The notes: generated by a model from the sequence alone, not told the origin. DNA of 64,000 nucleotides from Candidatus Saccharimonadales bacterium (GCA_040903985.1 JBBDUI010000002.1:198038-262037), one strand, 5' to 3'; positions 36,395-60,920 are shown, numbered from the stretch's first letter. A program made the numbers and translations.

Positions 36395-36415
36395 TAAGCT
36401 GTATTATGGCATATC

Positions 36416-36445: not shown

Positions 36446-36472
36446 GATGCTTTGACCGAATCCAAACTGATA

Positions 36473-38162: not shown

Positions 38163-38231
38163 ATGGAGGGACTCGAACCCTCGACCCCCTGCTTGCAAAG
38201 CAGGTGCTCTAGCCAACTGAGCTACATCCCC
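38155..38231 (-). tRNA. tRNA-Ala (anticodon TGC), CCA encoded
   Basis: Sense sequence GGGGATGTAGCTCAGTTGGCTAGAGCACCTGCTTTGCAAGCAGGGGGTCGAGGGTTCGAGTCCCTCCATCTCCACCA gives a cloverleaf with a CTTTGCAAG anticodon loop. Confidence 0.92.
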
Positions 38232-38304
38232 ATGCTTGAGTAATTTTAAAGGTATGGCTACCCCTAAGCACGTACCAGAGTATACAATAAATATAATCGT
38301 AAAA

Positions 38305-38541
38305 CTATATTCTCGGCTCTAGCTTTTCCCAGAAAGCCTCGGCCCGTACTTGATAGCCGCGACTATTAGGATGAAACCAATCAGCTGCATAATCAAGCAG
38401 GGGGTTAAGCTTGCCCCTAGTCGCCTCATATAGCGGAACGAAGACCAGGCCATTTTCAGCGGCAGCAAGTCTTATTATCCGGCTAGCTGATTCTGCCTTC
38501 TGATTAGTCTTACTGCTGCCGAAGCTAGGCACACCAGCCAT
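38305..38541 (-). CDS. short ORF resembling the C-terminal block of an SGNH/GDSL hydrolase (DxxH motif); possible gene fragment
   Basis: ...DYAADWFHPNSRGYQVRAEAFW... resembles SGNH block V. It is only 78 aa long. Confidence 0.35.
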   Translation of the reverse strand: MAGVPSFGSSKTNQKAESASRIIRLAAAENGLVFVPLYEATRGKLNPLLDYAADWFHPNSRGYQVRAEAFWEKLEPRI

Positions 38542-38801
38542 TACAAGATGTCGCTGGCAAGCGTCGACTGGCCGTCGCCCTTGATCGCCGCCTTGAGTTC
38601 GTCCAGTGTCGTGGCGGCCTCGACGGCGGCGAGGAGCTCAGCTCGTGGGTCTGGTCGCGTGGCGATCGCCTCGTCATAGGCAGCCTGCAACGTAGTTTCG
38701 TCCGGCTCGTCGCCGTGGACGGTCAACGTCTCACCTACCTTTGTGTAGGCGATGCCGAGATGGGCTAGGGCGCACTTGCGCTGTGTGGTGTCCAATGCCA
38801 T
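38541..38801 (-). CDS. hypothetical protein, very G+C-rich, translationally coupled to the upstream tail-fibre-like gene
   Basis: 86-aa ORF whose start overlaps the stop of the 38801-40129 gene. G+C is far above the window average. Confidence 0.45.
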   Translation of the reverse strand: MALDTTQRKCALAHLGIAYTKVGETLTVHGDEPDETTLQAAYDEAIATRPDPRAELLAAVEAATTLDELKAAIKGDGQSTLASDIL

Positions 38802-40129: not shown

Positions 40130-40231
40130 TATACTTTAGCTTCAATGTTTAGTTGCTATGTACCCAATATAGAGTGGTTGTGGTTATCTGGCAACTGGTG
40201 GGAGGTGGGAGTTATTATCGATTGGGGTCAT

Positions 40232-40262
40232 CCGGGACTCGAACCTGAGGCCTCGTCATTAG
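40232..40262 (-). pseudogene. degenerate partial copy of a tRNA 3' half (T-arm GGTTCGAGTCC plus part of the anticodon stem)
   Basis: GGGACTCGAACCTGAGGCCTCGTCATTAG parallels GTGGACTCGAACCACGGACCTCGTCATTATCAG of the adjacent tRNA-Ile. It cannot fold into a full tRNA. Confidence 0.6.
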
Positions 40263-40305
40263 GTCTCGCTTTGCTCGATAAAGCATAATAATTTTTCAAT
40301 CCAAA

Positions 40306-40383
40306 TGGTGGGGCTGCGTGGACTCGAACCACGGACCTCGTCATTATCAGTGACGCGCTCTAACCAGACTGAGCTACAGCCCC
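40306..40383 (-). tRNA. tRNA-Ile (anticodon GAT), CCA encoded
   Basis: Sense sequence GGGGCTGTAGCTCAGTCTGGTTAGAGCGCGTCACTGATAATGACGAGGTCCGTGGTTCGAGTCCACGCAGCCCCACCA. Confidence 0.92.
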
Positions 40384-40410
40384 TCCATTTGGATTGAATT
40401 ATAAAAGTAC

Positions 40411-40560
40411 GAAACAGTGACGCGCTCTAACCGGGCTGAGCTAATCGCCCTCCAGCTGTATTTTACTATCTTCAGAATACACAGTGACGCACACTAGCTG
40501 GGCAGCTGTGTCCGCCATAGCCCCCAAGCGACGGCGGAAGCTAATCGCCCCTATAAAAGC
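40411..40560 (-). repeat. two tandem, progressively degenerate copies of the tRNA-Ile 5' half plus its upstream flank (remnants)
   Basis: Positions 40414-40460 match the tRNA 5' half: CAGTGACGCGCTCTAACC identical, then ...GCTGAGCTAATCGCCCTCCA. Positions 40478-40560 repeat ACAGTGACGC... and ...GCTAATCGCCCCTATA with an internal insertion. Confidence 0.65.
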
Positions 40561-40718
40561 ACACCTTATTGTAACCAGAAATCACCTCCTGGGGCAAGTC
40601 GGAATTACTGGTATCGATATTATTTATGTTTAGTAGTCATTTAAACAACAATCACCCTGTCATTCGACAGGGTGATTGTTTGTAGCTTTAAGTGCTTAGA
40701 CTGTGCAGCATAACCAAC

Positions 40719-40848
40719 CCCGCACCTGAGATGCAGGCAATAGCATAAGCTATTGCGACTCGGCTAGCCCTAACTTTCTAATGAAATAGCTAGGAACTAG
40801 TTACAGCTAAAGTTCTTGCGAACTTTACTGCATTTCAGGTGCGGGGCC
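40719..40848 (-). ncRNA. structured spacer element downstream of 16S: 19-bp long-range stem enclosing two hairpins (candidate processing element or small RNA)
   Basis: CCCCGCACCTGAGATGCAG at 40719-40737 pairs with CTGCATTTCAGGTGCGGGG at 40830-40848. Internal hairpins are GCAATAGC-ATAA-GCTATTGC and CTAGC...GCTAG. Confidence 0.4.
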
Positions 40849-40959
40849 GACCTTGGGATCTATCACTAACTCGACCCTTCGTTCCCACCAATGGCGGGAC
40901 CTTATCTTCGAGCGTAATAGGTCTAGTTTCGATTATTAATCGAAACGGTTTTCCCTAGA

Positions 40960-42445
<1,486 letters not shown>

Positions 42446-42866: not shown

Positions 42867-45800
42867 CTACTCGGTAGCTGTCGGGCTAGAGAAGCCGGCC
42901 CCAATTACGTGGTAGTCAAAGCTGTATTCGGTACCAGCTGTCACCGGGACGGTAGTGACCAGCATGAACCCTGCGGGAGTCGACTTCACATACACCTCCA
43001 AGCTAGTAGCGGCGGCATTTCTAGCCGAAATCGTGACTCGGGGCGGGAAGGTGTAAATTTGAGAGAAGTCGATCCGCGCTAACTCATACTCATTAGTCTC
43101 CACCACGCTCTCTGATACCACCACATTAATAGTTCCGGCTACATCAGTTCCGCTTAAACTAACTGTACCGCCTTCTAGATCAGCCCCGGAACTGGCTTCT
43201 GGGGTGTTACCGGTGCTGAGAAGATGTCCTCCTATACTTAAGTTCATGCTTACTCGTACTGCTGAGACACTAAGAGTACCCCCGATCACCACATCTCCGG
43301 TCACCTCTAAGCTAGCCAGCGTACTAGCACCACTCACGTTCAAGCTTGAGAAGTCAACTTGCTCACCACTATCCTGTACGCTTTCGCTGGCTTGCTGTAA
43401 TTGTGGTATATAGTTCTCAGTCTTCACAAAGACCATCACTGAGCCGACGTCGCTACCACTGTAACTCTCTAGGGCATAGCCGACAATTCGTGCCGGATCA
43501 CTAGCTTTCATTCCGACCCCTGGAGTTTCAGAGAGGGTAATGGGGTCGCCTACAGCTATGCTGCCATTCTCTGTGGTTACATTTACTGGCACCCGACCGA
43601 CTAGGGCAAGCGGTGCGCCCTCGGTCTTCGAAGCTAAGACCAAACCAGGCTCAGTAGAGATAATCCCAGCTAGAGACACGCTCGTGGTAGCTCTCACTAA
43701 CTTGCCTTCGGCGTTAAAGGCCACGATGTCACCGGGCTCAACCGGCTCGGCGGTGGCATAATGCTCAGCAACGTCGGCAGAAGTATCGGTTAGGAAAGCA
43801 TGGGCCCGCACGTTACCGGAAACAGTTAACTTGCTATCGGGAGAGGTGGTGCCGATACCTACATTTCCGCCCTGGATGAGAGTATTGGCGTTAGCGTCAA
43901 TCGTAAAAGCGTTAACCGTAGTCTCTTGGTAGTTGCTGATAGTTTCGCCATGAGAGACCACTGCAGCATAGGGCACGATCGGATTAATTATAGTTGGTAA
44001 CACCGTGCTGTTGGTTGGGCTATGACTGCCTACAGACGGGCTGACTGTAATTGATTCGGGCGAGATGTCAGTCTCCTCAAGCTCAATATCTTCACAAATA
44101 TCACCGCACCCCTCGATGTTAACCAGGCCATGAAATTTAGCCGCCATGAAATCGCTACCACCTGTACCGTAGCTAGACGTAATGCCAGCCACCACATACC
44201 CTCCATCACTAGTCTGGCGAGCAGATCGAATTTGATCGCTACTGGTGCCGCCCACTACCCTAGTCCACTCTTCAGCTCCACTGGAGTTAAACTTAATCAA
44301 CATAAAGCTGTTATTGCCCGGCCCATAGCTGGCGGTATAGCCGCCTAGAATGTAGCCTCCGTCACTAGTCTGCTGTACTGATTGAACGACATCACTACCA
44401 GTTCCACCCGCTACCTTAGTCCACTCATGAGCTCCATCAGAGTCGAGCTTAACCAGCATAAAGTCGTTACTACCGGCACCGTAACCGGAGGTATAGCCTC
44501 CAATGATATAGCCCCCGTCACTAGTCTGCTGTACGGACTGGGCTGTTTCGCTACCGGTGCCACCTATCACTCTTGTCCACTCATGAGCTCCATTGGAGTC
44601 GAGCTTAACCGTCATAAAGTCGCCACTGCCCGCACCATAGCTGGAGGTAGAGCCGGTCAAGATGAAGCCACCGTCACTGGTATAATCCATATCATTCGTC
44701 GTATCACTACTACTTCCTCCGATCGCACGTGTCCAGAGACTCACGCCATTACTATCGAGTTTGGTTATATTAAAATCATTACTACCCCCGGTTGTAAAAG
44801 TAGAGCTATACCAAGAGATGGCATAGCCTCCGTCACTGGTCTGTTTTACAGTAGAAGGCGATGACTCACTACTGGCGCCACCCAGTGTCTTACTCCAGCT
44901 AACCGCTCCATTAGCCGTAAATTTAATAACCATTAGATCGTAACTTCCCGCCCCCAAACCGTTAACTCGTCCCGAAGCGATATATCCCCCATCTGTAGTT
45001 AAATCTACCGAGTAGCCAATGTCACTACTGGTGCTACCCAGTACGGTCGACCATTCCAGCTGACCGAATACGTTAAGCTTAGAAAGCATCCAGTCGCCAC
45101 TACCCGCACCGTATGAGTTAGTCTCTCCCACAACGATATAACCACCATCACCGGTCTGACGGATTGAATAAGCCGAATCACTGCTCGTCCCGCCCCATGC
45201 TGTTATGAAACTCGATGTGCTTGTGCCGATATTTGCCCGAGTAGTCACGCGTAGAGCATCACGACTTAGATCGGTATGATCTATCTCCAGCCGACCTCCT
45301 AAACGAGTGTTGCCTTCTACGCGAAGATCCTCTTGAACAAATAGATCCCGGTCCAGGCGGGTATCGCCACCAACTCGAGCATCGCCCTCAACTAAAAGGT
45401 TACTAGTATGCGTCTGGCCGTTCGTTATCTTTACTACGGTCAGAGCGTCTGCCCCGCTACTTGCGATATATGCATAGCTGTCGGCAACAAATAACCCACT
45501 AGCACCTGCTAAATCGCCATCACTTATGCTGCCCGTCTGAGTCGGTGCAGCTGGGTCGACCACATCGACGACCGCTAACGTGCCCGTAGTGTCACTTGTA
45601 ACATACGCGTAGCCACCGCTGAAGAACACTTCGCTAGCGCCGGTCAATTCGGCCGATGTCACCGTGCCCACCTGGGATACTGCGGCCGGATTAGTAATGT
45701 CAATTACTGTTAACGAACCGGCTGTGGCGCTGGCCACGTAAGCATAGTCTCCACTCACAGCCACGCTTCTAGCCCCATTCAAATCAGTATTAGCTATGCT

Positions 45801-47015
45801 ATCGACTGTGCTTAAGGCGGCCGGATTAGTAATATCGATTACTGTTAACGAACCGGCTGTGGCGCTGGCCACGTAAGCATAGTCTCCATTCACAGCAACT
45901 CCCCGGGCGCCTACCAAATTAGCGGAGCTAAAGCTGCTAACTTGAGTTAAATCATTTGGATCACTGATATCAACAACCGTTAGGCTACCAGCATAATGAC
46001 TAGCGATATATGCATAGTTCCCACTAATAGCGATATCGCTAGCGCCTTCGAGATCAGTATTATTAATGTAAGTATCTACCTTAACAGGAGTAGTAGGATC
46101 GCTAATATCGATCGAGACGACAGAATCCGCATGGAAGCTGGCCACGTAAGCATAATCTCCACTTACGGCTACCCTTCTAGCACCATTAAGCTCGACCGCA
46201 TCCGATACGCTACCGACCTGGGCTAGCTCATCAATATAGCTAACATCAACTATCGTCAACGCATCGGCCTCAGAGCTTGCCACGTAGGCATAAGAGTCCC
46301 TAATAACTACTCCACTTGCCCCGACAAGTCCGGCAGTAGTTAAAGCCCCAGAGGAAGACAAGCTCGAGTTAGTAGCCACTCGCAATATATCCTGTCCGCT
46401 ACTAGTCTTAACAGCCAGAGCACTCGCTACCGGTGCGACTGAACGAACAGATGCCTCTCCATATACATCGAGTGCCACCTGCGGGCTGCTAGTACCAATG
46501 CCGAGACGACTACTAGTATTATCCCAGTGGAAGTTACTATTACCAGTTAAAGAGTCACTCCCATCAAAGAAAGCGATCTGGCCCACACTACCGCTACCCT
46601 GAAGGCCACCACTACCACCACCAGGACAGTTACCAGAGGCATCGCAGACTTGATTGCCATTTTGGAGTAAGCTGGTAGCTGTTATCTGCTGGAAGGTATT
46701 ATTGCCACTAAAAGTATTGTTCGCATTAAGAAAGGCTACATTACTACTTAAAGCTCCGTCAGCTACCGAACCTGCGCTCGAAATTGTCAGATCCTCATCC
46801 ACCTCACTATTCTGAATCGACTGTCCCAATAGCGAGACACTCGCATCAAGCCGAGCGTTAGACAATGTACCAGTACTTATATTACTAGCATTGGTAAAGT
46901 AGGAGCTTGTATTCCCTCCTAAGCTTGCTGCATTAACGTTAGTGAGATTAGCTCCGTCACCCTGGAGACTACCCGCGATCAAGGTACCAGATATATTGAT
47001 ATGCCCTGACTGCAC
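42867..47015 (-). CDS. giant surface protein: Gly-rich N-terminus, about 10 LVIVD-type beta-propeller repeats (SGDYAYVAS...LTVIDI), about 9 SBBP-type repeats (TSDGGYI...YGAG..D), and a C-terminal tail-fibre-like region ([16 protein letters not shown])
   Basis: The repeats are periodic at both protein and DNA level. It probably starts with GTG and is probably the continuation of the upstream collagen-like ORF. Confidence 0.6.
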
Positions 47016-47664
47016 CGTCCTGACCGTCAGCTCCGGCTGGTCCTTGGGAGCCGGTCGGACCCTGAATACCCGCGGGCCCCTGAGGTCCGATAGGCCCTTG
47101 TGAACCAGTTGCCCCTTTTGCGCCGGCTGGACCTGAAGGACCAGTCGGGCCTTGTGGACCAGTGGCTCCCCTAGCTCCGGTCGCGCCTACGCTACCGCTA
47201 GCAATTACTCCATCCGAATCATCCGCTACAGCAGATTCATCGTTATCCTCCTCTACATCGTCAGCAGCTGGGCTGTCAGACTGTGAGGCTACCAGCTCCT
47301 CTGTAGCTTTACTTAAGTTCTCTACTTGAAGTGCTAATTTATCTTGTTGAGCGTCAAGTCTATCTTGCTGTAACGAGATTTCCCGCTCTGATTGCTGGCT
47401 GTTAGCCGCCGGCATAATACTCCTCATAGTCCACATCTGCGAAACAAGTAGTACTACTACCGCGATGCTGACAGCTATAACGGTAGCATGACTGGTGTTA
47501 TGCGGAGTGTAGGGCGGATAGTTATGGGGTGGGTATGGACCTGCGGTGCCCTGGGGATGATACGGCGAACCGACTACCGGTGCAGCCTGATTCGTGGGCA
47601 TATCAGGGGCTGATTGCTGATTATAATCGTCTGGCAAAACTGAGTTTTGTTGCTCGGGATTCAT
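46969..47664 (-). CDS. membrane-anchored collagen-like protein (Pro-rich N-terminus, single TM, coiled coil, about 20 Gly-X-Y triplets); likely the N-terminal part of the giant protein
   Basis: TM segment [17 protein letters not shown] and [58 protein letters not shown]. The last 14 codons are non-collagen and overlap the next ORF in another frame. Confidence 0.65.
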
Positions 47665-47855: not shown

Positions 47856-48674
47856 TTACTTGCGGCGGCGTTTCTTGTTTTTTCGCACTTGTGTACGTGT
47901 CGCTCGATGACGTTCTAGCAATTTTACCTCGTAGCGGTAGTGTGACCCTATAAAACGATAAACGCGCCTCCACAGCACTATATGTAGTATCCCCAAGGCA
48001 GTTGTAATCATTAGTGGCCATAGCCGCCAGCTTCCAGCATGAATAGTCTGAAACTGTAATAACGACATAAACAGTCCGATAGCAGCCGGTAAGACGAGAC
48101 TCCACCAGATGATCAGCTTAAGTCGATGCGTTGTTCTCACCCGACGATACCGCTGTAGTATTAGTCGCGCCGCTAACGCGGTAAAGAATAATAAAGCAAA
48201 GAACAATAAGTAGGCACTCCTCTCCAGCGCTGGAGGAGACATTACTAACCATTCTAACTGATGGTCCCAATCAGAAGAAGTAAACAAAAGAGCCACTATA
48301 GCGCCAGCTATAGCGCCAGCGCCAACTTCAACCGGGGTATGGCCCATAATCTCTTTTACGAGCTTAGTGTTGCCTGATGTCTTCAATAGTACATTCATCA
48401 TGACCGATTGTTCCCCGCTGGAACGGCGAATACCTAGGGAGTCGTAGATGACAATAGCAGCTAGAACAGCTGCTATCCCAAAAATGGGACTCTGCAGCCC
48501 TTCAATTGCTAGAGCCGCAATAGCGACTGCAACTACGGTTGCACTATGAGCGCTCGGCATTCCGCCGGACTGATAAAACAACTTGAAATCAGGCGTCGCA
48601 ACTAGCGCTTTAAGGGAGAACTTAATTAGCTGAGCTACGAACCAAGCACTGAAAGCTATCAGCAGCAACTGCAT
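47856..48674 (-). CDS. divergent PAP2 (DUF212/YuiD-like) domain fused to a C-terminal 4-TM extension and a basic tail
   Basis: GGMPSAHSATVVAV is the DUF212 signature. Confidence 0.6.
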   Translation of the reverse strand: MQLLLIAFSAWFVAQLIKFSLKALVATPDFKLFYQSGGMPSAHSATVVAVAIAALAIEGLQSPIFGIAAVLAAIVIYDSLGIRRSSGEQSVMMNVLLKTSGNTKLVKEIMGHTPVEVGAGAIAGAIVALLFTSSDWDHQLEWLVMSPPALERSAYLLFFALLFFTALAARLILQRYRRVRTTHRLKLIIWWSLVLPAAIGLFMSLLQFQTIHAGSWRLWPLMITTALGILHIVLWRRVYRFIGSHYRYEVKLLERHRATRTQVRKNKKRRRK

Positions 48675-51154
48675 TACTCTTGTTCCGCCCCAGTATCAGA
48701 GATAAGAGCGACCGAAACGATCTCATCATCTTTGTTCAAGCGCATAATGCGCACCCCTTGGGTCACCCGACCGATGATCGATATCTCTTTCGTTCGCAAG
48801 CGGATGATCTGACCCCGGCGCGAGATGAGTAAGACCTCATCCTCTTCCGGAATGGTGCGAACTACGTTAATCACCGGGCCGGTCTTCTTGCTAATAACGC
48901 CGGCCTTAATACCTAAGCCGCCTCGCTTATGTACGGCGAACAATTTCACCTTGGTACGCTTACCGTAACCGTTAGCGTGGACCACCATCACCTGAGCATC
49001 ATCATTGACGACATCGAAACCAACCACTTTGTCGCCCTTGCGCAGGCGGATGCCTCGTACGCCGCGTGCACTACGGCCCATCGGACGCACATCGGTCTCC
49101 TCGAAACGCAGCGCCTGACCGTTAGCGGTTGAGATGAGGATCTGATCTTGGCCGGTTGTAATACGGACCCACTGCAAGAGGTCATCGTCATCGAGCCGAA
49201 TAGCGATAATACCGTTAGTGCGAATGTTAGAGAACTGTTCTAGTGATGTCTTTTTGACTACACCTTCACAAGTCGCCATGAGGAGATAAGTCTCTTTAGC
49301 CTCTTTCTCTTGGGGCAGCTTGATGATGGCACTGATGCCTTCATCGGGGTGCAACTGCAGGATATTAACGATGGCCTGCCCCTTGGCAGTTCGAGAGGCG
49401 ACCGGAATCTCATAGGCCTTAATCCTAAAGACACGACCTATAGTGGTGAAGAACAGGATGTAGTCGTGAGTATTCGCAAACACCATGTGGGCGATCACAT
49501 CCTCTTCCTTAGTACCCATCCCGACGACTCCCTTGCCACCGCGACCTTGGCTCCGGTAGGTGTCGAGTGTGGTCCGCTTGATGTAGCTACCCTTGGTGAA
49601 GGTAATGACTACCTGTTCGTTCGGGATCAGCTCCTCTTCGGAGAACTTGCCCAGCTCGTGCTCGACGATACTGGTCCGACGCTCGTCACCATATTTATCT
49701 TTCATCTCGACTAATTCGGCCTTAATAATCTTTAGAATCTCGGCCTCACTAGAGAGAATCTTCTCTAGCTTCTTAATCAGTACCAGAACTTCTTTCAGCT
49801 CGTCCTCTACCTTCTGGCGCTCGAGACCGGCCAGAGTACGTAGCTGCATACTTAAGATAGCGTTGGCTTGGAGCTCGCTGAACTTAAACTGCTTCATCAA
49901 GTTATCCCGGGCCGCATCGGTGCTCTCACTCGCACGAATCGTCTTGATCACCTCATCGATATGATCAAGCGCTATCTTCAGTCCTTCCAGAATGTGAGCG
50001 CGAGCCTTCGCCTTACGCAGATCAAACTCACTGCGACGGCGCACTACTAGCTGACGATGCTTCAGATACTCACTTAAGATGGCCTCGAGGTTAAGGACCT
50101 TAGGCTGGATACCGTCTACCAGAGCGAGCATATTCAAGTGAAACTTAGTCTGCATTGGGGTCAGCTTGTAGAGCTGGTTAAGAATCTTCTTCGGATAGGC
50201 ATCTTTCTTCAAATCGACAACGATGCGTACGCTTCCGCGCGAGCTCTCGTCCCGCAAATCGGCGATACCGGTTATCTTCTTGTCCTTCACCAGGTCGGCA
50301 ATCTTCTCGATGAGGGTGGCCTTGTTCTGACCATAGGGGATCTCAGTAACTAAAATCTGGTGCGCATTCTTACTCTCGACGATTTCCGCTACAGCCCGGA
50401 CGGTAACGCCGCCGCGACCACTACCATAAGCGTGGCGAATCGACTCCTGGCCATAGATGATACCACCGGTTGGGAAGTCGGGACCTTTCACAAAGTTGAG
50501 CAAATCATCGGTCGTCACGTCATCGTTCTCGATCATAAATACTAGCGCGTCTACTAATTCGCCTAGGTTATGTGGCGGGATGTTGGTGGCCATACCGACA
50601 GCGATACCCATCTGACCGTTGAGCAGTAAGTTCGGTACCTTAGCCGGGAGAACGGACGGCTGCTGCTCCGAACCATCGAAGTTAGGTACGAAATCGACTG
50701 TCTCTTTATCGATGTCGGCTAACATCTCACCGGCGATGGCCGTCATCCGAGCCTCGGTGTAACGCATGGCAGCAGCGGAGTCACCATCCATCGAACCGAA
50801 GTTACCCTGACCGTCCACCATCATATAGCGCATAGACCATGGCTGAGCCATACGAGCTAAGGAGTCATAGATTGCCGAGTCACCATGAGGGTGGTACTTA
50901 CCCATAACTTGACCGACAATGGTGGCACTTTTACGATGCTTAGTGTTGTGACGGATGCCGTTCTCGTGCATTGAGTAGAGAATGCGGCGGTGGACCGGCT
51001 TCATACCGTCCCTAACGTCAGGCAGGGCCCGGGCGACGATCACGCTCATCGAATACTCGAGATAGCTCTTCTCCATCTCATCAACGAGGTTCTTACTGTG
51101 AACCATACCTCGGTTGTCTTTTACGCTCTCTGGTAGTGTTGTATTATCTGCCAC
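48674..51154 (-). CDS. gyrA: DNA gyrase subunit A
   Basis: Catalytic [10 protein letters not shown], the GyrA box SQGRGGKG, a C-terminal beta-pinwheel, and the gyrB-gyrA arrangement. Confidence 0.92.
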
Positions 51155-51155
51155 G

Positions 51156-53165
<2,010 letters not shown>

Positions 53166-53236
53166 TTATTTACCCTCAAATATAGCTCAATTATACTGCT
53201 GAATCGGCCTACTAGCAAGAGCGAGCGGGTCGAGCG

Positions 53237-56200
53237 CTAACCTTGATGGACCTTACCTTCATCGTCGATATATATCTCACCCGGTTGCAGCTTGGGAACG
53301 GCTGACTCGGTAGGGTTACTCTCAGCAGCTTCGGGCTTAAGCGGTTTTTGCTCCGGCATCACTACCCCGGTACCAAACGGCGAGACTAACGGCTCACTAC
53401 TATCATCGGGGGTAGACTCTTCCGGCGGCACTGGCTGAGGCTGTACCACGTTTGCCTCCGGAGCTTCCGACTGTTGTAGGCCTGCCTCAGCCGTTTCGCT
53501 AGACTCAGGCCTCGCCTGAGCAGCTGTAGCGGCCGACTCAGCCGGCTCTACATGGGGCTCATCCCCTGCCGGCACTAATGGAAGAACACTACTATCCGTC
53601 TGCTCCACGTCGGAACTCGCGGACGCAGTAGAGATGTCACCCTCCACTTGAGCCGGCAGCTCGGGCAAATCAGGTGACTTAGGCGTAGATTGATCTGCGT
53701 CCTCTTCCTGCTGCAGCGCGGCTGAGGGTGGCGCTGGGAAAGATAGTGGAGACGGGGGTGTAAAAGTCTGGGAGTCACCGCTAGGAGGGGATGAAGCCGG
53801 GGCAGAACTGAATGATATAGGCTCAGGAGTAGATAGGTTCGGCGACTCAGACGGTGCGGGCGGCTGAGTCTGAGCCGATTCAGATACACCGCTACTCTTA
53901 GGAGCTGCCTGGTCGGCGTAGGTGGATGTCTGCTTAGGTGAGTGATCGGTTGGTTCAAGCTGAGGTCTAGGGGCAGACTGAGAAGCCGCTTGCTGCAATG
54001 TGGCACGACGTTTATCAAGCCACTCGTCTAAGAACGAAGCTGAAGCAGCCCCCCCGCTAGCTCCTGGACTGGCGGATGGCCCGGAACCACTCCCCAATGG
54101 CGGACCGGTCGACTCCCGGGAGTTGGTGGCTAAACTCTCAAACGGACTTGGAGCCGGTTGTGAGGCTACCCGATCGAATATCTCCTTCTCTACTTCAGCC
54201 CGAGGACGACCGTACTTAGCGGCCGAAAGCTTCTTCAGCGCCTGAGCTAACTGCGGCTTAGACGAAGCTAGCGGCGGCAAGGCAGCAATGTTAAACGGCT
54301 GAGTCGGTAACCCACCGCTCATCAATCGAATCGCAGCGTTAAAGTTAGGCAGGTTGACTAGATCACGCTCGTTAAAGGCCGGAGCAAACTGCTTCACTAG
54401 AAAGTCGGCATCGGCCGGACCGGTGCGGTAGCTAATAATAGTACCGACATTACCGAAGACCGCATCGCGAATCTCATCGCTCAACTGGGAGATAAACTGG
54501 TTAGCTACGATCAGGTTCATCCGGTACTTCCGTGCCTCGGACAGAATGAAAGCAAATGACTCGGTCGAAAAGTTCTGGAACTCATCGACGTAGAGAGAGA
54601 AATCTTTTCGCTCATCTTCCGGTACATTAGCCCGGCTCATAGCGGCAGCCTGGAATTTCATAACGAAAATCATACCGAGCAGCTGAGAGTTAAGTTCACC
54701 TAGGCGCCCCTTACTAAGGTTAGCGATTAGGATCTTATTACTATCCATCAGCTCACGCAGATCGAAAGCGCTCTTAGTCTGACCGATAGTGTTACGCATC
54801 AACTGGTTACTTAAGAAGGCACCAAACTTAGAGACGAACCAACTCACCACTTCACCAAAATCGTTAGAGCGCTGAGATTGTGGCATCTCCTTTTGCCAGA
54901 ACTCGCGGACCGACTGGTCCGTCACGTGCTTGAGCTTTTGCCGCACAAACTGCGGATCGCGGAACAGCTTCGGAATATCGACGAAGGTACCGCCGGCCGG
55001 ATCGGCCATGACCGTTAATGCGGCATTACGGAACAAGTGTTCATAGCGCGGACCGATGATACCGGTATGCTGCGGGTCATACAGGCGATAAAGCATATTA
55101 ATAGCTTCCTGAATCAAGAAGTCTTTCTGATCCTCCGTCCGGTATTCAAAGATGTTCAGTCCCATCGGGGTATCCATGTTGCCGGGATCGAAATAAATAA
55201 CGTCCTCACTCCGTTCCGGTGGCACCATGCCGAGCAAACGTTCGGCCTCATCACCATGCGGATCGACGAAGGCGAAGCCCTTACCATCCATCATATCCTG
55301 CACCATCATGTTTGATAGCGCCGTCGTCTTACCGGTCCCGGTCTGCCCCACGATATAGACATGACGCCGACGGTCTTCATCGCTGAGACGAATCTCCTTC
55401 TTTACACCATGGTAGGAATTGTGGCCCAGCATCACTCCATCTTTACTGAGCCGGGTCGGTCCTTCCACCTGCTTGGAAAACTGCCGCTGCAGCTGAGTCG
55501 TCTTAGTAAACTGATCGTCCGGCAGGTGGAATAGGGTGGCTAGCTCCACGCTGTTGAGTACCATCTTAGCTCGCTCTGGCGGGAAGAAACGGAAGATAAA
55601 ATCGGTCACAAACTTCTCGATACTCTTCGCCGGCTCGAACTTGAAGCCGTTTAGTCCCGGCGCATCGAAGAGGGAGAAGGCCGAGATGACGTTATGAGTG
55701 ATCGACTGGGCTCGCGTAGCCGTGCCAGAAGAGGCGATCACTCGAATTAAAACTTCATAGCCGGAAGACTTGGTCTTCTCCTCGATCGCATCTAGCATCG
55801 ACTGCTCTAAGCTAGTTAGCTGTTTAGGAGGCTTCGGACCGCTGTCCTTGTCCCCGCTCTCTGGCGCCTTAAAGGGAGCTTGCAATAGCGACTTAGCTGA
55901 AATGCCGGACGAGCCCTTATCGTCTCGCTTCTGCTTCACGATGTGCTCGGACGACTTTGTCCAACCTTCCCGCGCCGGCCGCACCAGTATCTGCAGACTA
56001 GCTCCATCCCCCTGCTCCAAACTGGTGAGAGACTTAATCACGGCCTGCATAGCATCCCGTTTCAACTGATTAACCGTAGCGATCGGATAGGAATAAGCCT
56101 GTTTTAGCTTAATCTCACCGCCGTAGGTACCTGTAATCTTACCGGTAGCCGAAAAGATATTATGGTCTTCGACCTCTTCCAGCTGAGCGCCCGGATAGGC

Positions 56201-56590
56201 CGTCAGTATAGCCTGTTTAATCACCGCTACTAGAGCGACCGGAACCGCCGTATAGAGACGTATAACCCCGTCGATAGCTACGATCTCAAACGCTAAGTGG
56301 CGTTGGCCGAAGAACTTACTCTTGAACCCCTTCGTCGCCGTACTGGCGATCAAGTTAAACAACACCTCGGCCTGAGATATGCGCTCCTGGATAACGTCAC
56401 GCACATCGCGACCACCAACCTCTACATCTTCACTGGAGGGCGGCAAATTAATTAAGATCGGCACCATTTTAATACCGCGTTCTACCCCCTTAGCAAAGCG
56501 GAGGCCCTTACGGTAGACGATAAAGCCGGCCCCAGCCAGAGCAAGAATGATAATCAGAACGGTTGAGAAAATGATCAGCGCGTCCATCAC
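53237..56590 (-). CDS. type IV secretion coupling-protein-like (TraD/VirD4/TrwB-type) P-loop ATPase with an N-terminal TM, a novel about 400-aa N-domain and an about 350-aa Ser/Pro/Ala/Glu-rich disordered C-terminal tail
   Basis: Walker A YIVGQTGTGKTT is followed 20 aa later by FVDPHGDEAE (the DPKGD-like motif). Walker B is LYVDEFQNF. This is an orphan: no other T4SS genes are nearby. Confidence 0.45.
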   Translation of the reverse strand: MMDALIIFSTVLIIILALAGAGFIVYRKGLRFAKGVERGIKMVPILINLPPSSEDVEVGGRDVRDVIQERISQAEVLFNLIASTATKGFKSKFFGQRHLAFEIVAIDGVIRLYTAVPVALVAVIKQAILTAYPGAQLEEVEDHNIFSATGKITGTYGGEIKLKQAYSYPIATVNQLKRDAMQAVIKSLTSLEQGDGASLQILVRPAREGWTKSSEHIVKQKRDDKGSSGISAKSLLQAPFKAPESGDKDSGPKPPKQLTSLEQSMLDAIEEKTKSSGYEVLIRVIASSGTATRAQSITHNVISAFSLFDAPGLNGFKFEPAKSIEKFVTDFIFRFFPPERAKMVLNSVELATLFHLPDDQFTKTTQLQRQFSKQVEGPTRLSKDGVMLGHNSYHGVKKEIRLSDEDRRRHVYIVGQTGTGKTTALSNMMVQDMMDGKGFAFVDPHGDEAERLLGMVPPERSEDVIYFDPGNMDTPMGLNIFEYRTEDQKDFLIQEAINMLYRLYDPQHTGIIGPRYEHLFRNAALTVMADPAGGTFVDIPKLFRDPQFVRQKLKHVTDQSVREFWQKEMPQSQRSNDFGEVVSWFVSKFGAFLSNQLMRNTIGQTKSAFDLRELMDSNKILIANLSKGRLGELNSQLLGMIFVMKFQAAAMSRANVPEDERKDFSLYVDEFQNFSTESFAFILSEARKYRMNLIVANQFISQLSDEIRDAVFGNVGTIISYRTGPADADFLVKQFAPAFNERDLVNLPNFNAAIRLMSGGLPTQPFNIAALPPLASSKPQLAQALKKLSAAKYGRPRAEVEKEIFDRVASQPAPSPFESLATNSRESTGPPLGSGSGPSASPGASGGAASASFLDEWLDKRRATLQQAASQSAPRPQLEPTDHSPKQTSTYADQAAPKSSGVSESAQTQPPAPSESPNLSTPEPISFSSAPASSPPSGDSQTFTPPSPLSFPAPPSAALQQEEDADQSTPKSPDLPELPAQVEGDISTASASSDVEQTDSSVLPLVPAGDEPHVEPAESAATAAQARPESSETAEAGLQQSEAPEANVVQPQPVPPEESTPDDSSEPLVSPFGTGVVMPEQKPLKPEAAESNPTESAVPKLQPGEIYIDDEGKVHQG

Positions 56591-56605: not shown

Positions 56606-57064
56606 TTATCGCGTTGCTTTAATATCACGGCCGTAACGCTTCTTGTGGTACTCGATCTGGAGCTGCTCAAACGCTTGCTCCTGCGCCCTAGGATCGTCTT
56701 TCGTCTCCTTGATAATCTGTTTCGCCTTTTCGACCCAAGCCTTCTCTATCACGTCAACATCGTCGGCCGCTGTGGCCGGAGTACTGGCCGGCGGTACAGG
56801 AGTCGGTTGAGTCGGTGTCGGCAGTGGCGCTGGCTGAGCGGTCGGCAGCACTATCTGAGCGTCCGTCACGTCTCGCTCCACCGCCTCTTCAGCCTGACGT
56901 TCGGCCCCATTCGGCAACTGTTCGTCAGCTGTATTGAGCTTTTCGGCTTCTAGCTGAGGAAATATCTGCTCTGATGAAGGTGGAAGCGACTCTGGGGAGT
57001 TCGGTGGTTGATTCATACTGGCCTTAGTATAGCTTGTCGAGTGAGGACTGGACAAGGTCGCCAC
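56606..57064 (-). CDS. hypothetical Pro-rich protein
   Basis: 152-aa ORF with a conserved-looking basic C-terminus (KAWVEKAKQIIKETKDDPRAQEQAFEQLQIEYHKKRYG). No assignment made. Confidence 0.4.
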   Translation of the reverse strand: MATLSSPHSTSYTKASMNQPPNSPESLPPSSEQIFPQLEAEKLNTADEQLPNGAERQAEEAVERDVTDAQIVLPTAQPAPLPTPTQPTPVPPASTPATAADDVDVIEKAWVEKAKQIIKETKDDPRAQEQAFEQLQIEYHKKRYGRDIKATR

Positions 57065-57126: not shown

Positions 57127-59895
57127 TTAGAGTTCAAGTTCGGCGTCAAGGTCCTGTTTCACCACTGTAGCAATCTGCTGCAACCGCTGCTGGATATCCT
57201 GCTCATTCAAAGTCTTGGCGTGAGCCTGCAGCTCTAGATGAACCGTAATCACTCGACCAGACTCCCGTTGAAACTCGTCCTGATAGGTGACGACCACGTC
57301 CTCTACCTGAGATAGGCTAACAGCCAACTGCTGCCAAGTGACTTTATCTGGCACCATGACGGCTATATCCCGGTAACTGCTTTGATACCGTGGTAACGGC
57401 TCAAACCGCGCCGACTGCCATAGCTCTAGCAGTCGCACCACGTCGAGCTCGACCACTGCTACCGCATTGCGTAATTTCTGATTCTGCATAATTTTTGAAT
57501 GCAGTTCGCCGTAACAGCCGATCGCTACCCCGTCCACCTCAAGTGTCACTTGGCGAGCTGGGTGCAAGCTTGGATTGTCATGGCTGGTAACGAACTGAGG
57601 GGTGATCTGCAGTAAGCGCATAATCTGGTCGATATCACTCTTTACCCGCAGACGAGCCTCATCCTGCTGCCAGGCTAGGGCTAGCATCGTGTGCTCCAGT
57701 GGCAGCATCTCATCTGAGCGCGGCGTATAGGTACGGGCGATTTCAAATACGCCAAAGTTATCCTTATATGTAGTATTATCTACTACGGCTTTCAACAAGG
57801 TAGGTAGTAAACTCTGCCGCAAATAGGCCTGCTCCTGACTACGAGGATTTTTCAACTTCAGGTGGTTTTGGCCGGTAATCTTGTAGTTGGCTAGGTCGAC
57901 CTCGCTGATGAACGGATAGGTCGTCACCTCAAATAGACCCCGACCCCGCAAGAGCTGACGCAACTCATTTAGTCGACTCCAGTAGTGATCGACTAAACCC
58001 TTCTCCTTTGGTCTCCAGGCAGGCAAAGTGGCCTCGAGATTATCCAGTCCGTATAGCTTAATCACCTCTTCAGCGATGTCGGCCTCGTCACGCAAATCAG
58101 GTCGCCACCAAGGAGCTGTCACTTGCACATACTGCTCTAGGTCACCTACATAACGGCGAGCTCCCAAAAACTGGCTATCCTGGCTCATCTGTTCTAGTGA
58201 TAACTCTACTACCTGTTGTTCCTCGACCGGTAGCTCTTCCCACTCATCAGCTTGATTACGCACATTGTTACGGGCATCAATGATCTTACCTTCACCGATA
58301 TAGAGCGCTACATGTGAAACTCCCTCGCGTTCGACCTCATCTAGTTGAACCCAGGGGCCACCCCGGAAGACGAGATCACCAGGACGCAAATCAGCCAGCT
58401 CCACCGCGGTACCACTCGTATACTGAGCATGAGCTGTATGGCCGATCTTAATCCCAATCAACGAGTAGATATAGTCCACTAGATACGAGCAGTCGAAAGC
58501 TTTAACCCCATCGGTCTTAAAGCTGGCACCCAACTTATACGGTTTAGCGAGGTGCTTACGAGCTTCTAGGGCAATATCGAACGGCTCGGCATCGATCTGG
58601 AGATGACGCAGGTAGTCGGACACCTCCTCACGCTCTAACTTCACTCCCAATAGCTGTTGCAGGCGAGGAGACCGGACACCTATATGCTGGACCCAGGGCC
58701 AGATGTTCAATTCATTCTGGTATGCTGTCAGCTCGGCTCCAGCATACTCCTGCAGTAGATGTACCGCGTAACGTAGCGCGGGACGAACGGCCTGTACCGG
58801 TAAACCACGCTCAAACCGAGCACTTGCCTCAGTTCTTAGGCCGTGGCGCTTAGCCGACTTACGTACTAGTACATCCGAGAAAGTAGCGGCCTCGACTAGT
58901 ATCTCCTGCGTATTATCACCGATTTCAGCCGTCTCACCCCCCATAATTCCAGCTAGTGCGACTGGGTGCTTACCACTGGCTACCACTATATCCTCGCTAG
59001 CTAAGGCTCGCTTTACTCCATCCAGAGTCGTTAGTACTTCGCCGTTGGTAGCAAAACGTAGCGTCAGCGGACCCTTCACTTGAGCCGCATCGAAAGCATG
59101 CAGAGGTTGGCCGGTCTCAAGCATCACATAATTTGTAACATCGACTACGACATTAATGGGGCGGACCCCCGCTAGGCGCAGCCGGCGTTGCATCCAGGGT
59201 GGTGAAGCAGCGACTTTTTGCGGAAGCTTAAGCTTAAGTAAGCCATAGCAGGACACTTCCTCTTTAGCTTGATTAGTAAATAAATTAGTAACCCGCTGAC
59301 CGGCAGGTGGCGCCTGGACTATCTGCTCGATTAAATCTGTAGCCGGAGTGTGAGCGGCCACCTCCCGAGCTAAGCCGACATAACTCTGGAGGTCCCAGCG
59401 ATTAGCGGCCGTCTTAATATCGACTACGCTCTGCTCAGCATTAAAAACTTCACGCAAAGGCAGGTCGGCCGCTACCTCAGTACCGAGATCAAGCAGACCC
59501 TCATGACTACCGCCTAGCCCCAGCTCCAACTCACTACATAGCATACCGTAGGAATCGTGACCGCGGATCTTGGCTTGAGTAATCTCAGTTCCGTCAGGCA
59601 GCACAGCCCCTAATTGAGCGAAAACCACTCGCTGCCCTACGTAAAGGTTTGGAGCGCCACATACTACCTGATACTTCTTACTACCCGATTTGACGGTCGC
59701 TACCTGCAACCGATCGGCGTTGGGATGTGGTTTGACCTCTACTACGGTGGCGGTAACGATACGAGAATCAAACTCTGGTGGCTGGATCACCTCCTCTACT
59801 TCTATACCGGCCCGCTCCAGTGCCGCCACCATCTCCGCTACTCCTAACGGCTCACTAAGGTGTTGATTTAGCCATTCACTCACTATCTTCACCAT
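57127..59895 (-). CDS. pheT: phenylalanyl-tRNA synthetase beta subunit carrying an inserted NlpC/P60 (papain-like cysteine peptidase) domain
   Basis: N-terminal tRNA-binding domain, B3/B4 (TAANRWDL...) and B5 (WWRPDL...EEVIKLYGLDNL). Within B5 there is a roughly 150-aa insert: ...KAFDCSYLVDYIYSLIGIKIGHTAHAQY...PGDLVFRGG...VSHVALYIGEGKIIDARN. Confidence 0.9.
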   Translation of the reverse strand: MVKIVSEWLNQHLSEPLGVAEMVAALERAGIEVEEVIQPPEFDSRIVTATVVEVKPHPNADRLQVATVKSGSKKYQVVCGAPNLYVGQRVVFAQLGAVLPDGTEITQAKIRGHDSYGMLCSELELGLGGSHEGLLDLGTEVAADLPLREVFNAEQSVVDIKTAANRWDLQSYVGLAREVAAHTPATDLIEQIVQAPPAGQRVTNLFTNQAKEEVSCYGLLKLKLPQKVAASPPWMQRRLRLAGVRPINVVVDVTNYVMLETGQPLHAFDAAQVKGPLTLRFATNGEVLTTLDGVKRALASEDIVVASGKHPVALAGIMGGETAEIGDNTQEILVEAATFSDVLVRKSAKRHGLRTEASARFERGLPVQAVRPALRYAVHLLQEYAGAELTAYQNELNIWPWVQHIGVRSPRLQQLLGVKLEREEVSDYLRHLQIDAEPFDIALEARKHLAKPYKLGASFKTDGVKAFDCSYLVDYIYSLIGIKIGHTAHAQYTSGTAVELADLRPGDLVFRGGPWVQLDEVEREGVSHVALYIGEGKIIDARNNVRNQADEWEELPVEEQQVVELSLEQMSQDSQFLGARRYVGDLEQYVQVTAPWWRPDLRDEADIAEEVIKLYGLDNLEATLPAWRPKEKGLVDHYWSRLNELRQLLRGRGLFEVTTYPFISEVDLANYKITGQNHLKLKNPRSQEQAYLRQSLLPTLLKAVVDNTTYKDNFGVFEIARTYTPRSDEMLPLEHTMLALAWQQDEARLRVKSDIDQIMRLLQITPQFVTSHDNPSLHPARQVTLEVDGVAIGCYGELHSKIMQNQKLRNAVAVVELDVVRLLELWQSARFEPLPRYQSSYRDIAVMVPDKVTWQQLAVSLSQVEDVVVTYQDEFQRESGRVITVHLELQAHAKTLNEQDIQQRLQQIATVVKQDLDAELEL

Positions 59896-59897: not shown

Positions 59898-60920
59898 TTA
59901 GAACTGCTCCAGGAATTTAAGGTTAGGGCGCCACAGGTCTCGTAGGTCTGGTAGCTGGTACTTTATAGCCGCGATCCGTTCCAGACCGAAACCGAAGGCA
60001 AACCCCGTATATATCTCCGGATCGATACCCACATTGCGGAAGACTTGGGCGTGCACCATCCCAGCCCCGCCCAGCTCCACCCAGCCAGTACCTTTGCAGA
60101 CTCGGCAGCCAGCTTGACTAGCTTCATTACAGTTCTGACAACTAGCGTCCATCTCAACGGAAGGTTCAGTGTAAGGAAAATAATTCGGACGCAGTCGCAA
60201 CTCAGTGTCCTCACCGAAGATACCTTTTAGCATATACTCGAGAGTGCCCTTGAGGTCGCCCATACTAATGCCCCTATCGACTACTAAACCTTCCAGCTGG
60301 CGGAAACTCCAGATGTGGGTAGCGTCCTCATCCTCGTTGCGGTAGACCTTGCCTGGGGCGATGATACGAATCGGCGGCTTATGGGTCTCCATGTGGCGAA
60401 TCTGCACACTAGAGGTATGGGTTCGCGGAATCGATCCATTCTCTAAATAAAAAGTATCCTGCATATCGCGGGCTGGATGATGGGGACCGATGTTAAGCGC
60501 CTCGAAGCAGTACCAGTCGGTTTCGATCTCTGGACCCGTTACCGCCTGGAAGCCAAGCTGCCAGAACAGCTCCACCATCTCATGCTGCAGACTCTCCACC
60601 GGGTGCAGGCGACCGATAGCAGGCCCTACACCGGGCCGAGTCATATCGATAAACTCACTACTCTCACTCTCCAGCTGTTTAGCCTGCAGATCATCCAGTC
60701 GCTTATCTAAGGCAATTTGTAAATCCATCTTAAGTTTATTTAGCTGCTGACCAGCTCGCGCCCGTTCCTGCTCCGGTAGCTCACTAATACCACGCAACTC
60801 CGTGGTCACTACCCCTTTACGACCCAAATACTCGACCCGTAGGTCCTCGACCTCAGCTGCGGTCTCGGCTGACTTCAACTTTTTATTTAATTCTTTAAGA
60901 ATATCGCCGGTATGACTCAT
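59898..60920 (-). CDS. pheS: phenylalanyl-tRNA synthetase alpha subunit
   Basis: Class II motifs (FPYTEPS, GAGMVH) and an extra Cys4 cluster (CQNC...CRVC) before motif 3. Confidence 0.9.
   Translation of the reverse strand: MSHTGDILKELNKKLKSAETAAEVEDLRVEYLGRKGVVTTELRGISELPEQERARAGQQLNKLKMDLQIALDKRLDDLQAKQLESESSEFIDMTRPGVGPAIGRLHPVESLQHEMVELFWQLGFQAVTGPEIETDWYCFEALNIGPHHPARDMQDTFYLENGSIPRTHTSSVQIRHMETHKPPIRIIAPGKVYRNEDEDATHIWSFRQLEGLVVDRGISMGDLKGTLEYMLKGIFGEDTELRLRPNYFPYTEPSVEMDASCQNCNEASQAGCRVCKGTGWVELGGAGMVHAQVFRNVGIDPEIYTGFAFGFGLERIAAIKYQLPDLRDLWRPNLKFLEQF

Follow-up and report, generated by a model that had tools for sequence, protein, structure and literature searches.

A type IV coupling protein-type ATPase of monoderm conjugative ancestry is a core chromosomal gene of Saccharimonadia

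Location and reading frame of the ATPase gene

We analyzed a stretch of 64,000 nt (hereafter, the window) from Candidatus Saccharimonadales bacterium (GCA_040903985.1, JBBDUI010000002.1:198038-262037), in which the minus-strand open reading frame (ORF) at positions 53237..56590 encodes an ATPase of the type IV coupling protein (T4CP) type. This ORF was present in the ORF list and its translation and comprises 1117 codons when counted from a GTG codon at position 56590, from which all residue numbers of the ATPase given below are counted. The likely initiation codon is the ATG at position 56587, one codon past the GTG, which has a GGAGG sequence approximately 10 nt upstream and is also the start chosen by both NCBI and Logan. 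On the basis of the ORF list, the translation and this ribosome-binding site, the coding sequence spans positions 53237..56587 (minus strand; stop codon, 53237–53239), and the product has 1116 aa. The protein is identical to that (P0001) in the NCBI and Logan data for a Candidatus Saccharimonadales metagenome-assembled genome (GCA_040876815.1, JBBDOY010000002.1), where its database name is ‘type IV secretory system conjugative DNA transfer family protein’.

Immediately downstream of the ATPase gene lies gyrB (51156–53159), followed by gyrA (48674–51154), and upstream lie pheT (57127–59895) and then pheS (59898–60920). An initial annotation, made from the DNA sequence, had described the gene as an orphan coupling protein-like ATPase wedged between pheT and gyrB; both neighbors are as described, although a conserved ORF of 136 aa (56606–57016) that lies between pheT and the ATPase gene had been overlooked. 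Among the scanned ORFs of at least 150 aa in the window (two ORFs of this size that overlap longer genes were left out of the scan), we found no VirB4, VirB6, relaxase or other type IV secretion system (T4SS) gene; the remaining ORFs in the scan were housekeeping or surface-protein genes, and rRNA genes were also present. The window scan likewise found no integrase, transposase or tRNA boundary flanking the ATPase gene, the only two tRNAs of the window being located at 38–40 kb inside the rRNA region, and no defense or nuclease genes were found among the neighbors of the ATPase gene.

Domain organization and family assignment

The T4CP-type nucleotide-binding domain occupies residues 386–808, including an all-alpha insertion (54167..55435; all features of the ATPase are on the minus strand), as determined by Pfam, Foldseek and a profile search of the PDB. 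As the initial annotation had reported, a Walker A motif is followed by a DPxGD motif and a distant Walker B motif. Regular-expression searches of the translation located the Walker A motif GQTGTGKT at residues 415–422 (55325..55348) and the Walker B motif LYVDE at residues 666–670 (54581..54595), and the DPHGD motif at residues 443–447 (55250..55264) was invariant in the alignment of close homologs. The Walker A residues G415, Q416, T417, G418, G420 and K421 were invariant among 48 close homologs, and D669 and E670 of the Walker B motif were invariant in an alignment of a divergent set of 37 family members with 29–62% identity. An AlphaFold2 (AF2) model of residues 1–860, with a mean predicted local distance difference test (pLDDT) score of 81.5, contains a RecA-like core with the all-alpha insertion at residues 486–616 (54743..55135), whose helices lie between the strands at residues 464–467 and 620–624; as modeled, this insertion is the counterpart of the all-alpha domain of TrwB.

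By Pfam, profile and fold, the ATPase is a coupling protein of the VirD4/TraD/TrwB type. Its matches to the Pfam families T4SS-DNA_transf (PF02534; 26–27 bits; gathering cut-off, 20.1) and TrwB_AAD_bind (PF10412; 21.7–22.8 bits; gathering cut-off, 20.5) exceeded the respective cut-offs, and in the divergent set TrwB_AAD_bind was found in 37/37 members, TraG-D_C (PF12696) in 36/37 and T4SS-DNA_transf in 21/37, with a best E-value of 1e-15. A search of the PDB with the family profile yielded TrwB (2e-7) and DotL (9e-7). The Foldseek match of the model to TrwB (E-value, 3e-12; TM-score by target length, 0.59–0.64) covered approximately 450 columns and hence nearly all of TrwB-deltaN70 (422–427 aa), and Cag-beta, DotL and HerA were matched as well. 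These results uphold the initial placement of the protein in the FtsK/HerA/T4CP clade, and when we looked for best matches to AAA+ or ABC families instead, this was not what we found. Matches to other models were more restricted. The NCBIfam models of TraD and VirD4 matched the P-loop alone, with scores far under their cut-offs; a match to DUF87 was partial (23 bits); and matches to FtsK, HerA, AAA and STAND proteins were confined to the P-loop, that to FtsK_SpoIIIE (PF01580) covering only residues 403–430 with E-values of 0.004–0.0065, under the cut-off. Neither the gamma domain nor the region of four transmembrane (TM) helices of FtsK was found in the ATPase, which has one TM helix only.

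The top Foldseek matches of the whole model were to TrwK/VirB4 (4e-14 over approximately 920 aligned columns). At the sequence level, a hidden Markov model (HMM) of the ATPase domain matched TrwB at 4.6e-10 and a VirB4-like protein of Embleya at 9e-6, with no match to TrwK, and the VirB4-type Pfam families AAA_10 and P-loop_TraG were found in only 8/37 and 6/37 members, respectively. A role in anti-phage defense, as in HerA or mad8 systems, was also considered and rejected: the PADLOC matches were partial (mad8, 2e-16 over residues 398–732; HerA, short segments), and no defense genes are present nearby.

The N-terminus carries the single TM helix that had been noticed initially, at residues 3–26 (56513..56584; Kyte–Doolittle values up to 2.7 in a 19-aa window; AF2 helix, 2–39). 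The N-terminus was TM-like in 116 of 120 close homologs, and the basic residues that follow the helix in the sequence fit an N-out/C-in topology. Approximately 390 aa separate the TM helix from the P-loop, of which residues 42–353 (55532..56467) fold as a domain, assigned to Pfam PF26449 (DUF8128) in the precomputed matches of the identical protein P0001 and of nearly all homologs. The AF2 models show an alpha/beta fold with a disordered loop at approximately residues 222–258. When this N-domain was modeled separately, its sole significant Foldseek matches in the PDB were TrwK/VirB4 chains (E-values, 2e-5 to 4e-4; TM-score by query length, 0.40–0.47), and the matches that followed had E-values above 0.05. 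The Pfam family of the VirB4 N-domain, CagE_TrbE_VirB (PF03135), was found in 0/37 members at E-values up to 1, and the hhalign comparison of the N-domain with a TrwK N-domain profile gave an E-value of 0.27, equal to that of the reversed control, the VirB4 profile being shallow (effective number of sequences, approximately 3.4) and restricted to the mating-pair formation (MPF) class MPF-T. The likeness of the modeled N-domain to the VirB4 N-terminal domain is structural only; should it truly be VirB4-like, this T4CP clade would be a structural link between both ATPase families of T4SSs.

Residues 809–1117 (53240..54166) form a C-terminal tail that is disordered, as judged from its composition and from AF2 pLDDT values. 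The residues S, P, A, E, Q, G, T, D and K account for 78–86% of the tail, hydrophobic residues are few, and its modeled part (residues 809–860) was mostly of low confidence, with pLDDT values below 50 at residues 822–852. Disorder had been correctly described in the initial annotation, whereas the length is about 310 aa rather than 350 aa and two conserved islands lie within the tail. In relatives, the tail varies in length (135–699 aa) and in sequence, and a search for tandem repeats in the tail found none. The first island, SFLDEWLDKRR at residues 852–861 (54008..54037), is a short predicted helix in which F853 and W857 were invariant in the close-homolog alignment, and 76 of 79 full-length relatives have the motif F[LIMV]xxW. 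The second, GEIYIDDEGKV at residues 1104–1114 (53249..53281), corresponds to a family consensus of approximately TI(Y/F)ID(K/R)(D/E)GN(L/F); 73 of these 79 relatives have the pattern x[IVL][DN]xxGx within their final 70 aa, at a median of 14 residues before the end, and the remaining six have shorter, similar-looking C-terminal ends. The end of the C-terminal extension of F TraD binds TraM, and the long C-terminal tail of DotL binds adaptors (IcmSW). By analogy, the two conserved tail motifs probably recruit partners.

The GC content of the ATPase gene is similar to that of its flanks, except in the tail-coding part. At positions 53000–54500 of the window, the GC content rises to 0.56–0.57, the GC skew becomes positive along the stretch that encodes the tail, and spurious overlapping ORFs appear (53575–54018, minus strand; 54000–54245, plus strand) because of the Pro/Ala/Ser/Gly-rich codon usage of the tail.

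Conservation, synteny and a small partner gene

A word-index search with the ATPase yielded 6,437 matches, the best 120 of which were 53–100% identical over the first approximately 860 aa, and an exhaustive search yielded 21,834 matches, including 5,720 at E < 1e-30 (representatives of clusters at 50% identity). Very many positions were invariant in the alignments of both the ATPase domain and the N-domain. In a check of conservation across related genomes with two invariant peptides, DPHGD being among the patterns, at least 570 species-representative genomes encoding the ATPase were recovered; the labels of the best 80 of these genomes were almost all Saccharibacteria or Saccharimonadales.

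The ORF of 136 aa (56606..57016, minus strand), identified as a partner by HMM and synteny, ends 15 nt before the GTG and 18 nt before the ATG of the ATPase gene. Its product consists of a disordered N-terminal half rich in P, Q and E and a conserved C-terminal segment of approximately 55 aa (ADDVDVIEKAWVEKAKQII..DP..QE....LQIEYHKKRYGRDIK), in which W, A, P, E, L, Y, K and R residues are invariant. By HMM, this ORF was found directly upstream of the ATPase gene in 84 of 86 loci, and the 37 homologs recovered were always free-standing and never fused. No family matching the partner was found in Pfam, PHROG or PADLOC. We also considered a YoeB-like toxin and dropped this candidate, as the only matches were an NCBIfam hit with an E-value of 0.008 and a PDB hit with an E-value of 0.035 over approximately 35 residues; this weak similarity is probably due to chance.

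In 65 of the 86 loci, gyrB followed the ATPase gene in the same orientation, and many of the remaining loci were truncated. In most relatives, two opposite-strand genes, encoding a hypothetical protein of 190 aa and a CLIPPER/DUF11 surface protein, lie between the ATPase gene and gyrB, whereas the window lacks both. A relative with 43% identity retains the order RmuC, pheS, pheT, small ORF, ATPase, gyrB and gyrA; in a relative with 35% identity, the housekeeping context is different and the small ORF is absent. The wider neighborhood, which includes IF3, L35, L20 and YifB on one side and extends to DUF212 on the other, is also syntenic, and because of this synteny of the whole neighborhood the association with gyrase seems to reflect history and not an operon. 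The small ORF and the ATPase gene form part of a stable core backbone in Saccharimonadia.

Two promoter-like sites on the minus strand accompany these genes. A consensus scan of the spacer between pheT and the small ORF detected TTGTCC-18-TATACT (57026..57055), a candidate promoter of a two-gene operon of the small ORF and the ATPase gene; this is suggestive only, as the count of promoter-like sites in the region did not exceed the shuffled expectation. In the 77-nt spacer between the ATPase gene and gyrB, the site TTGCTA-17-TATAAT (53190..53218), which matches the consensus at 10/12 positions and was identified by this match only, suggests that gyrB may have its own promoter.

Relatives in plasmids and phages

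In a BLASTP comparison, the ATPase matched a Bacillus subtilis plasmid protein (WP_121549396.1; NZ_CP032854.1) at 8e-49 with 25% identity, colinearly over residues 75–783. An HMM of the patescibacterial N-domain matched this protein at 7e-32 and an Embleya plasmid T4CP (WP_331738717.1; NZ_CP108778.1) at 5e-19, with no match to the VirB4-like ATPases encoded in the same plasmid operons or to TrwK. From these sequence matches, the DUF8128 N-domain is a trait of a large clade of coupling proteins in monoderm mobile elements. The initial annotation had regarded a domain of roughly 400 aa before the P-loop as unusual; its extent stands approximately (390 aa, of which residues 42–353 are folded), but since plasmid T4CPs have the N-domain in common with it by sequence, the domain does not set the Saccharimonadales ATPase apart.

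The order of the Bacillus plasmid operon is T4CP, replication-relaxation protein, conjugal transfer protein, TcpE and VirB4-like ATPase, and that of the Embleya plasmid operon is PrgI, VirB4-like ATPase, T4CP, replication-relaxation protein and NlpC/P60. No gene resembling the small partner was found among the listed neighbors of the plasmid T4CPs, the plasmid gene table being incomplete. The plasmid pLS20 was dropped as a reference relative, as its T4CP lies outside the 20–65 kb stretch and its relaxase is annotated as MobP2.

Full-length homologs were present in 348 plasmids and 49 records of Bacillus-type phages, and these homologs make up PHROG 5156. Large Bacillus phages carry homologs with both N-domain and ATPase at 21–24% identity, for example in JN638751.1 (90937–93117; Bacillus phage G gp156) and OQ921336.1 (SPO1-like), and the function of PHROG 5156 is unannotated. 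A distant metagenomic member (P0199; 1,227 aa; L088, 10001–13684) has tandem T4CP ATPase domains, with HMM matches at residues 397–762 and 831–1203, and is located in a transposase-rich region between an integrase/HTH_17 pair on one side and a Replic_Relax gene on the other.

The counterpart in S. epibionticum

In S. epibionticum ML1, the gene order is SEML1_0137 (IF3), 0138 (YifB), 0141 (hypothetical, 420 nt), 0142 (ATPase, approximately 1,019 aa), 0143 (hypothetical) and 0144 (DUF11/CLIPPER), both on the opposite strand, 0145 (gyrB), 0146 (gyrA) and 0147 (PAP2/DUF212) (PMC10633639). Each gene in this list has its match, in the same order, in the loci of close relatives. The P-loop domain spans residues 381–800 in SEML1_0142 and residues 386–808 in the Saccharimonadales ATPase. 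From synteny, length, annotation and domain boundaries, we infer that SEML1_0142 is the ortholog of the Saccharimonadales ATPase and, by synteny, the partner ORF corresponds to SEML1_0141.

SEML1_0142 belongs to a core, Patescibacteria-enriched family, and transposon insertion sequencing (Tn-seq) classified it as essential (ES) at all three time points (ES/ES/ES), with 114 insertions in the input and 11, 11 and 9 at the successive time points; it is among only 61 class I essential genes (PMC10633639). This essentiality is known for the S. epibionticum gene only. SEML1_0141 was classified as GD/ES/ES (GD, growth defect), with nine insertions in the input and none later, whereas SEML1_0293, a second T4CP-like gene with a TrwB_AAD_bind domain, was non-essential (NE) at all three time points (PMC10633639). 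Therefore, the one T4CP-like ATPase that is essential in S. epibionticum comes from the family studied here. Most of the T4SS genes SEML1_0006–0019 were GD/ES/ES, and the cluster is essential (PMC10633639); Wang et al. (2023) described the ML1 T4SS cluster as lacking a recognizable coupling protein or relaxase (PMC10633639).

T4SSs are near-universal in Saccharibacteria, and T4CP genes are usually far from virB4 (literature including PMC12102498). Quinonero-Coronel et al. (2025) reported 5,713 VirD4-type homologs in 2,918 of 3,035 patescibacterial genomes, only 148 of which were near virB4 (PMC12102498). The description of the gene as an orphan consequently holds within the 64-kb window but does not single it out, since in this phylum a T4CP gene is normally far from virB4 (148/5,713 nearby). 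The same authors described ‘the’ T4CP homolog of ML1 as non-essential and possibly exapted, without naming the locus (PMC12102498). Their non-essential t4cp is probably SEML1_0293, and not SEML1_0142.

As a separate observation, in ML1 the T4SS cluster comes after dnaA-dnaN-recF (region SEML1_0001–0019), whereas gyrB-gyrA come after the essential T4CP-like gene (region SEML1_0141–0146). In the canonical bacterial origin region, dnaA-dnaN-recF and gyrB are contiguous. The T4SS cluster and the T4CP gene could derive from one ancient element that was inserted at dnaA-dnaN-recF-gyrB and afterward divided; the order of genes within the ML1 T4SS cluster gave no clear support for this idea.

Functional interpretation

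The ATPase is of the T4CP type and of monoderm-conjugative ancestry, and in Saccharimonadia its gene now belongs to the chromosomal core. According to published work, the T4SS of Patescibacteria derives from the MPF-FATA class of monoderms (PMC12102498), which agrees with the occurrence of DUF8128 in the T4CPs of monoderm elements. With regard to function, we lean, with slightly better than even confidence, toward a domesticated chromosomal T4CP of the monoderm conjugative-element clade that powers coupling for the essential T4SS, which lacks a relaxase and whose genes lie elsewhere in the genome. The ATPase is predicted to form a membrane-anchored hexamer, which would cooperate with this patescibacterial T4SS and would use ATP to pass substrates to the T4SS channel or to draw them through it. 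The N-domain might dock on the inner-membrane platform, by analogy with the N-domain of VirB4, the tail with its FLDEW helix and TIYIDxxGN motif may recruit adaptors or substrates, as in the TraD–TraM and DotL–IcmSW pairs, and the small upstream protein is a candidate adaptor or regulator.

Several points weigh against a coupling role. No T4SS gene was found in the window or within 6–10 kb around the ATPase gene in the related loci with gene calls that we examined, and T4CP homologs are present in more patescibacterial genomes (2,918/3,035, 96%) than VirB4 (2,417/3,035, 80%) (PMC12102498). The physical or functional tie of the ATPase to the T4SS is one that we infer, the orthology with SEML1_0142 is drawn from synteny and architecture rather than from a sequence alignment, and the VirB4-like fold of the modeled N-domain has no counterpart at the sequence level in hhalign.

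Among the roles proposed in the initial annotation, that of a host-interaction translocation motor is the most plausible, and competence-related DNA uptake is an unlikely reason for the essentiality, since S. epibionticum does not require comEC (PMC12857230). Uptake of host RNA has been reported for a Patescibacterium, its route being unresolved (bioRxiv 10.64898/2026.06.21.733656). That the ATPase and its partner might be the missing T4SS motor operating in a reverse or bidirectional manner, and pulling host RNA, DNA or other macromolecules into the epibiont through the pilus-bearing T4SS, seems unlikely to us; if true, it would provide a molecular handle on the route of host RNA uptake in that report.

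The most serious competitor of the coupling role is an exapted T4CP that is independent of T4SSs, namely, a stand-alone membrane-anchored translocase or assembly ATPase that would act with its partner in another essential process of the envelope or of nucleic acids; we judge it rather unlikely but well worth considering. It would accord with the absence of linkage between the ATPase and T4SS genes in the examined loci, with the wider distribution of T4CP homologs than of VirB4, for which exaptation has already been proposed (PMC12102498), with full-length homologs in Bacillus phages that lack a T4SS, and with the finding that SEML1_0142 is essential already at the first time point (T0; class I), whereas most T4SS genes are essential only after T0. 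This last point is weakened by the T0 read depletion of SEML1_0142, which was not stronger than that of the VirB4 gene SEML1_0008, the distinction between classes I and II being weak. Moreover, all family signals at the sequence level are those of a conjugative coupling protein, the plasmid homologs reside inside operons with T4SS and relaxase genes, and no alternative partner machine can be named. The layout of N-domain and ATPase also raises the idea of a second VirB4-type assembly ATPase in place of a coupling protein, in keeping with TrwK/VirB4 as the top whole-model Foldseek matches (4e-14, approximately 920 columns) and as the only significant matches of the N-domain model; we give it very little credence and reject it at the sequence level, where CagE_TrbE_VirB was found in 0/37 members at E-values up to 1, the hhalign value of 0.27 equaled the reversed control and the ATPase-domain HMM matched TrwB (4.6e-10) and not TrwK. 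In addition, the operons of the plasmid homologs each encode a VirB4-like ATPase as a distinct protein, and S. epibionticum has a VirB4 of its own (SEML1_0008).

The adjacency to gyrB-gyrA invites a different explanation, an FtsK-like chromosome translocase tied to DNA gyrase that functions in segregation or decatenation. The same-strand position of gyrB downstream in 65/86 loci and the assignment of SEML1_0142 to the FtsK motor fold e2iutB2 in ECOD (PMC10633639) are in its favor, but we find it highly improbable, given the weak FtsK_SpoIIIE match limited to the P-loop and the missing gamma domain and 4TM region. The protein is not a replacement for FtsK, because S. epibionticum possesses a canonical and essential FtsK, SEML1_0096 (PMC10633639). 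Two non-essential genes on the opposite strand intervene between the ATPase gene and gyrB in most relatives, and in the window a promoter-like site precedes gyrB; together with the syntenic neighborhood, these make the linkage look historical. Finally, the initial annotation had allowed for a decaying, functionless remnant of an integrated conjugative element, an idea consistent with the lack of relaxase or T4SS genes nearby and with distant relatives in mobile elements. It is effectively refuted by conservation and Tn-seq, and we assign it next to no weight: the ORF of 1116 aa is intact with invariant catalytic motifs, it recurs in at least 570 species genomes as a deeply conserved core gene with fixed, housekeeping synteny, there is no integrase, transposase or tRNA boundary, the GC content resembles that of the flanks except in the tail, and the syntenic ortholog SEML1_0142 is class I essential.

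Part of this is already known: the family is annotated, patescibacterial T4CP homologs unlinked to virB4 have been published, and the gene in the window is an ordinary and correctly annotated member. Unremarked so far is that S. epibionticum has two T4CP-like genes, of which the more conserved, gyrB-linked one is class I essential and is accompanied by a tiny partner gene; neither SEML1_0142 nor DUF8128 was mentioned in the literature searched. If the ATPase is coupled to the T4SS, the pair of tail motifs and the small partner could serve as baits for T4SS cargo. If it is not, an essential ATPase derived from conjugation would perform some core function across a very large radiation of bacteria.

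Other features of the window

Several further observations were made in the window. The PheT protein (57127–59895, minus strand, 922 aa) contains a domain of the NlpC/P60 peptidoglycan-hydrolase type at residues 451–545 (Pfam, 3e-15), between B3_4 and B5; a cell-wall hydrolase fold is odd in a subunit of a cytoplasmic tRNA synthetase. PheT has a similar length in a relative with 74% identity (L007), whereas in other Saccharimonadia (L003 and L087) it has 779–798 aa and no NlpC/P60 insertion; in L087, the gene after pheT is a separate one for YkuD/PG_binding_4.

The 23S rRNA gene (30731–34812, minus strand) is 4,082 nt long, compared with 2,925 nt for the model, and presumably carries one or more introns because it contains an ORF for a LAGLIDADG_1 homing endonuclease (31966–32442, minus strand). 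The rRNA genes are unlinked, the 16S rRNA gene (40959–42443) lying approximately 6 kb from the 23S rRNA gene. The intervening region (34813–42443) includes genes for a ferric-reductase-like protein (35078–36394), a Big_13 protein and a DUF502 protein, two tRNAs and an ORF of 442 aa (38801–40129) with no Pfam match. Just downstream of gyrA-DUF212, positions 42867–47664 (minus strand) encode an LVIVD-repeat/beta-propeller protein of 1,382 aa and, with an overlapping start, a collagen-like protein of 231 aa (Scl-like Gly-X-Y), both of which are probably surface adhesins.

Comparison with known systems

The classical T4CPs TrwB (R388), VirD4 (Ti) and TraD (F) have in common with the Saccharimonadales ATPase a Walker A/B domain with an all-alpha insertion and a membrane anchor. 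They differ in having two N-terminal TM helices and no N-domain of 300 aa, whereas the Saccharimonadales ATPase has one helix and the N-domain, and in the location of their genes alongside those for a relaxase and a T4SS. At the sequence level, they resemble the ATPase mostly within the P-loop region. TrwK/VirB4 (R388) shares the two-domain layout; however, VirB4 has neither a TM helix nor a disordered tail, similarity between the N-domain sequences is undetectable, and the Saccharimonadales ATPase domain is closer to those of T4CPs.

Within Saccharibacteria, SEML1_0293 resembles the Saccharimonadales ATPase in being a T4CP-type ATPase with approximately 360 aa before its P-loop domain, encoded far from virB4. 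It is, by contrast, non-essential and adjoins CRISPR-Cas9 and rpoS-like genes, its flanking gene SEML1_0292 is non-essential, and a small, essential upstream partner has not been recorded for it. Compared with the SEML1_0142 locus, the window has pheS-pheT upstream, no counterpart of the two opposite-strand genes that precede gyrB, and a longer tail.

In the plasmid proteins WP_121549396.1 of Bacillus and WP_331738717.1 of Embleya, both the N-domain and the T4CP ATPase are homologous by sequence and colinear, although identity is only 25–27%, and the Bacillus T4CP also ends in a low-complexity, charged C-terminal tail, as does the Saccharimonadales ATPase. These T4CPs are plasmid-borne and encoded in T4SS operons with a relaxase-type gene and a VirB4-like ATPase, whereas the Saccharimonadales ATPase is encoded by a core chromosomal gene.

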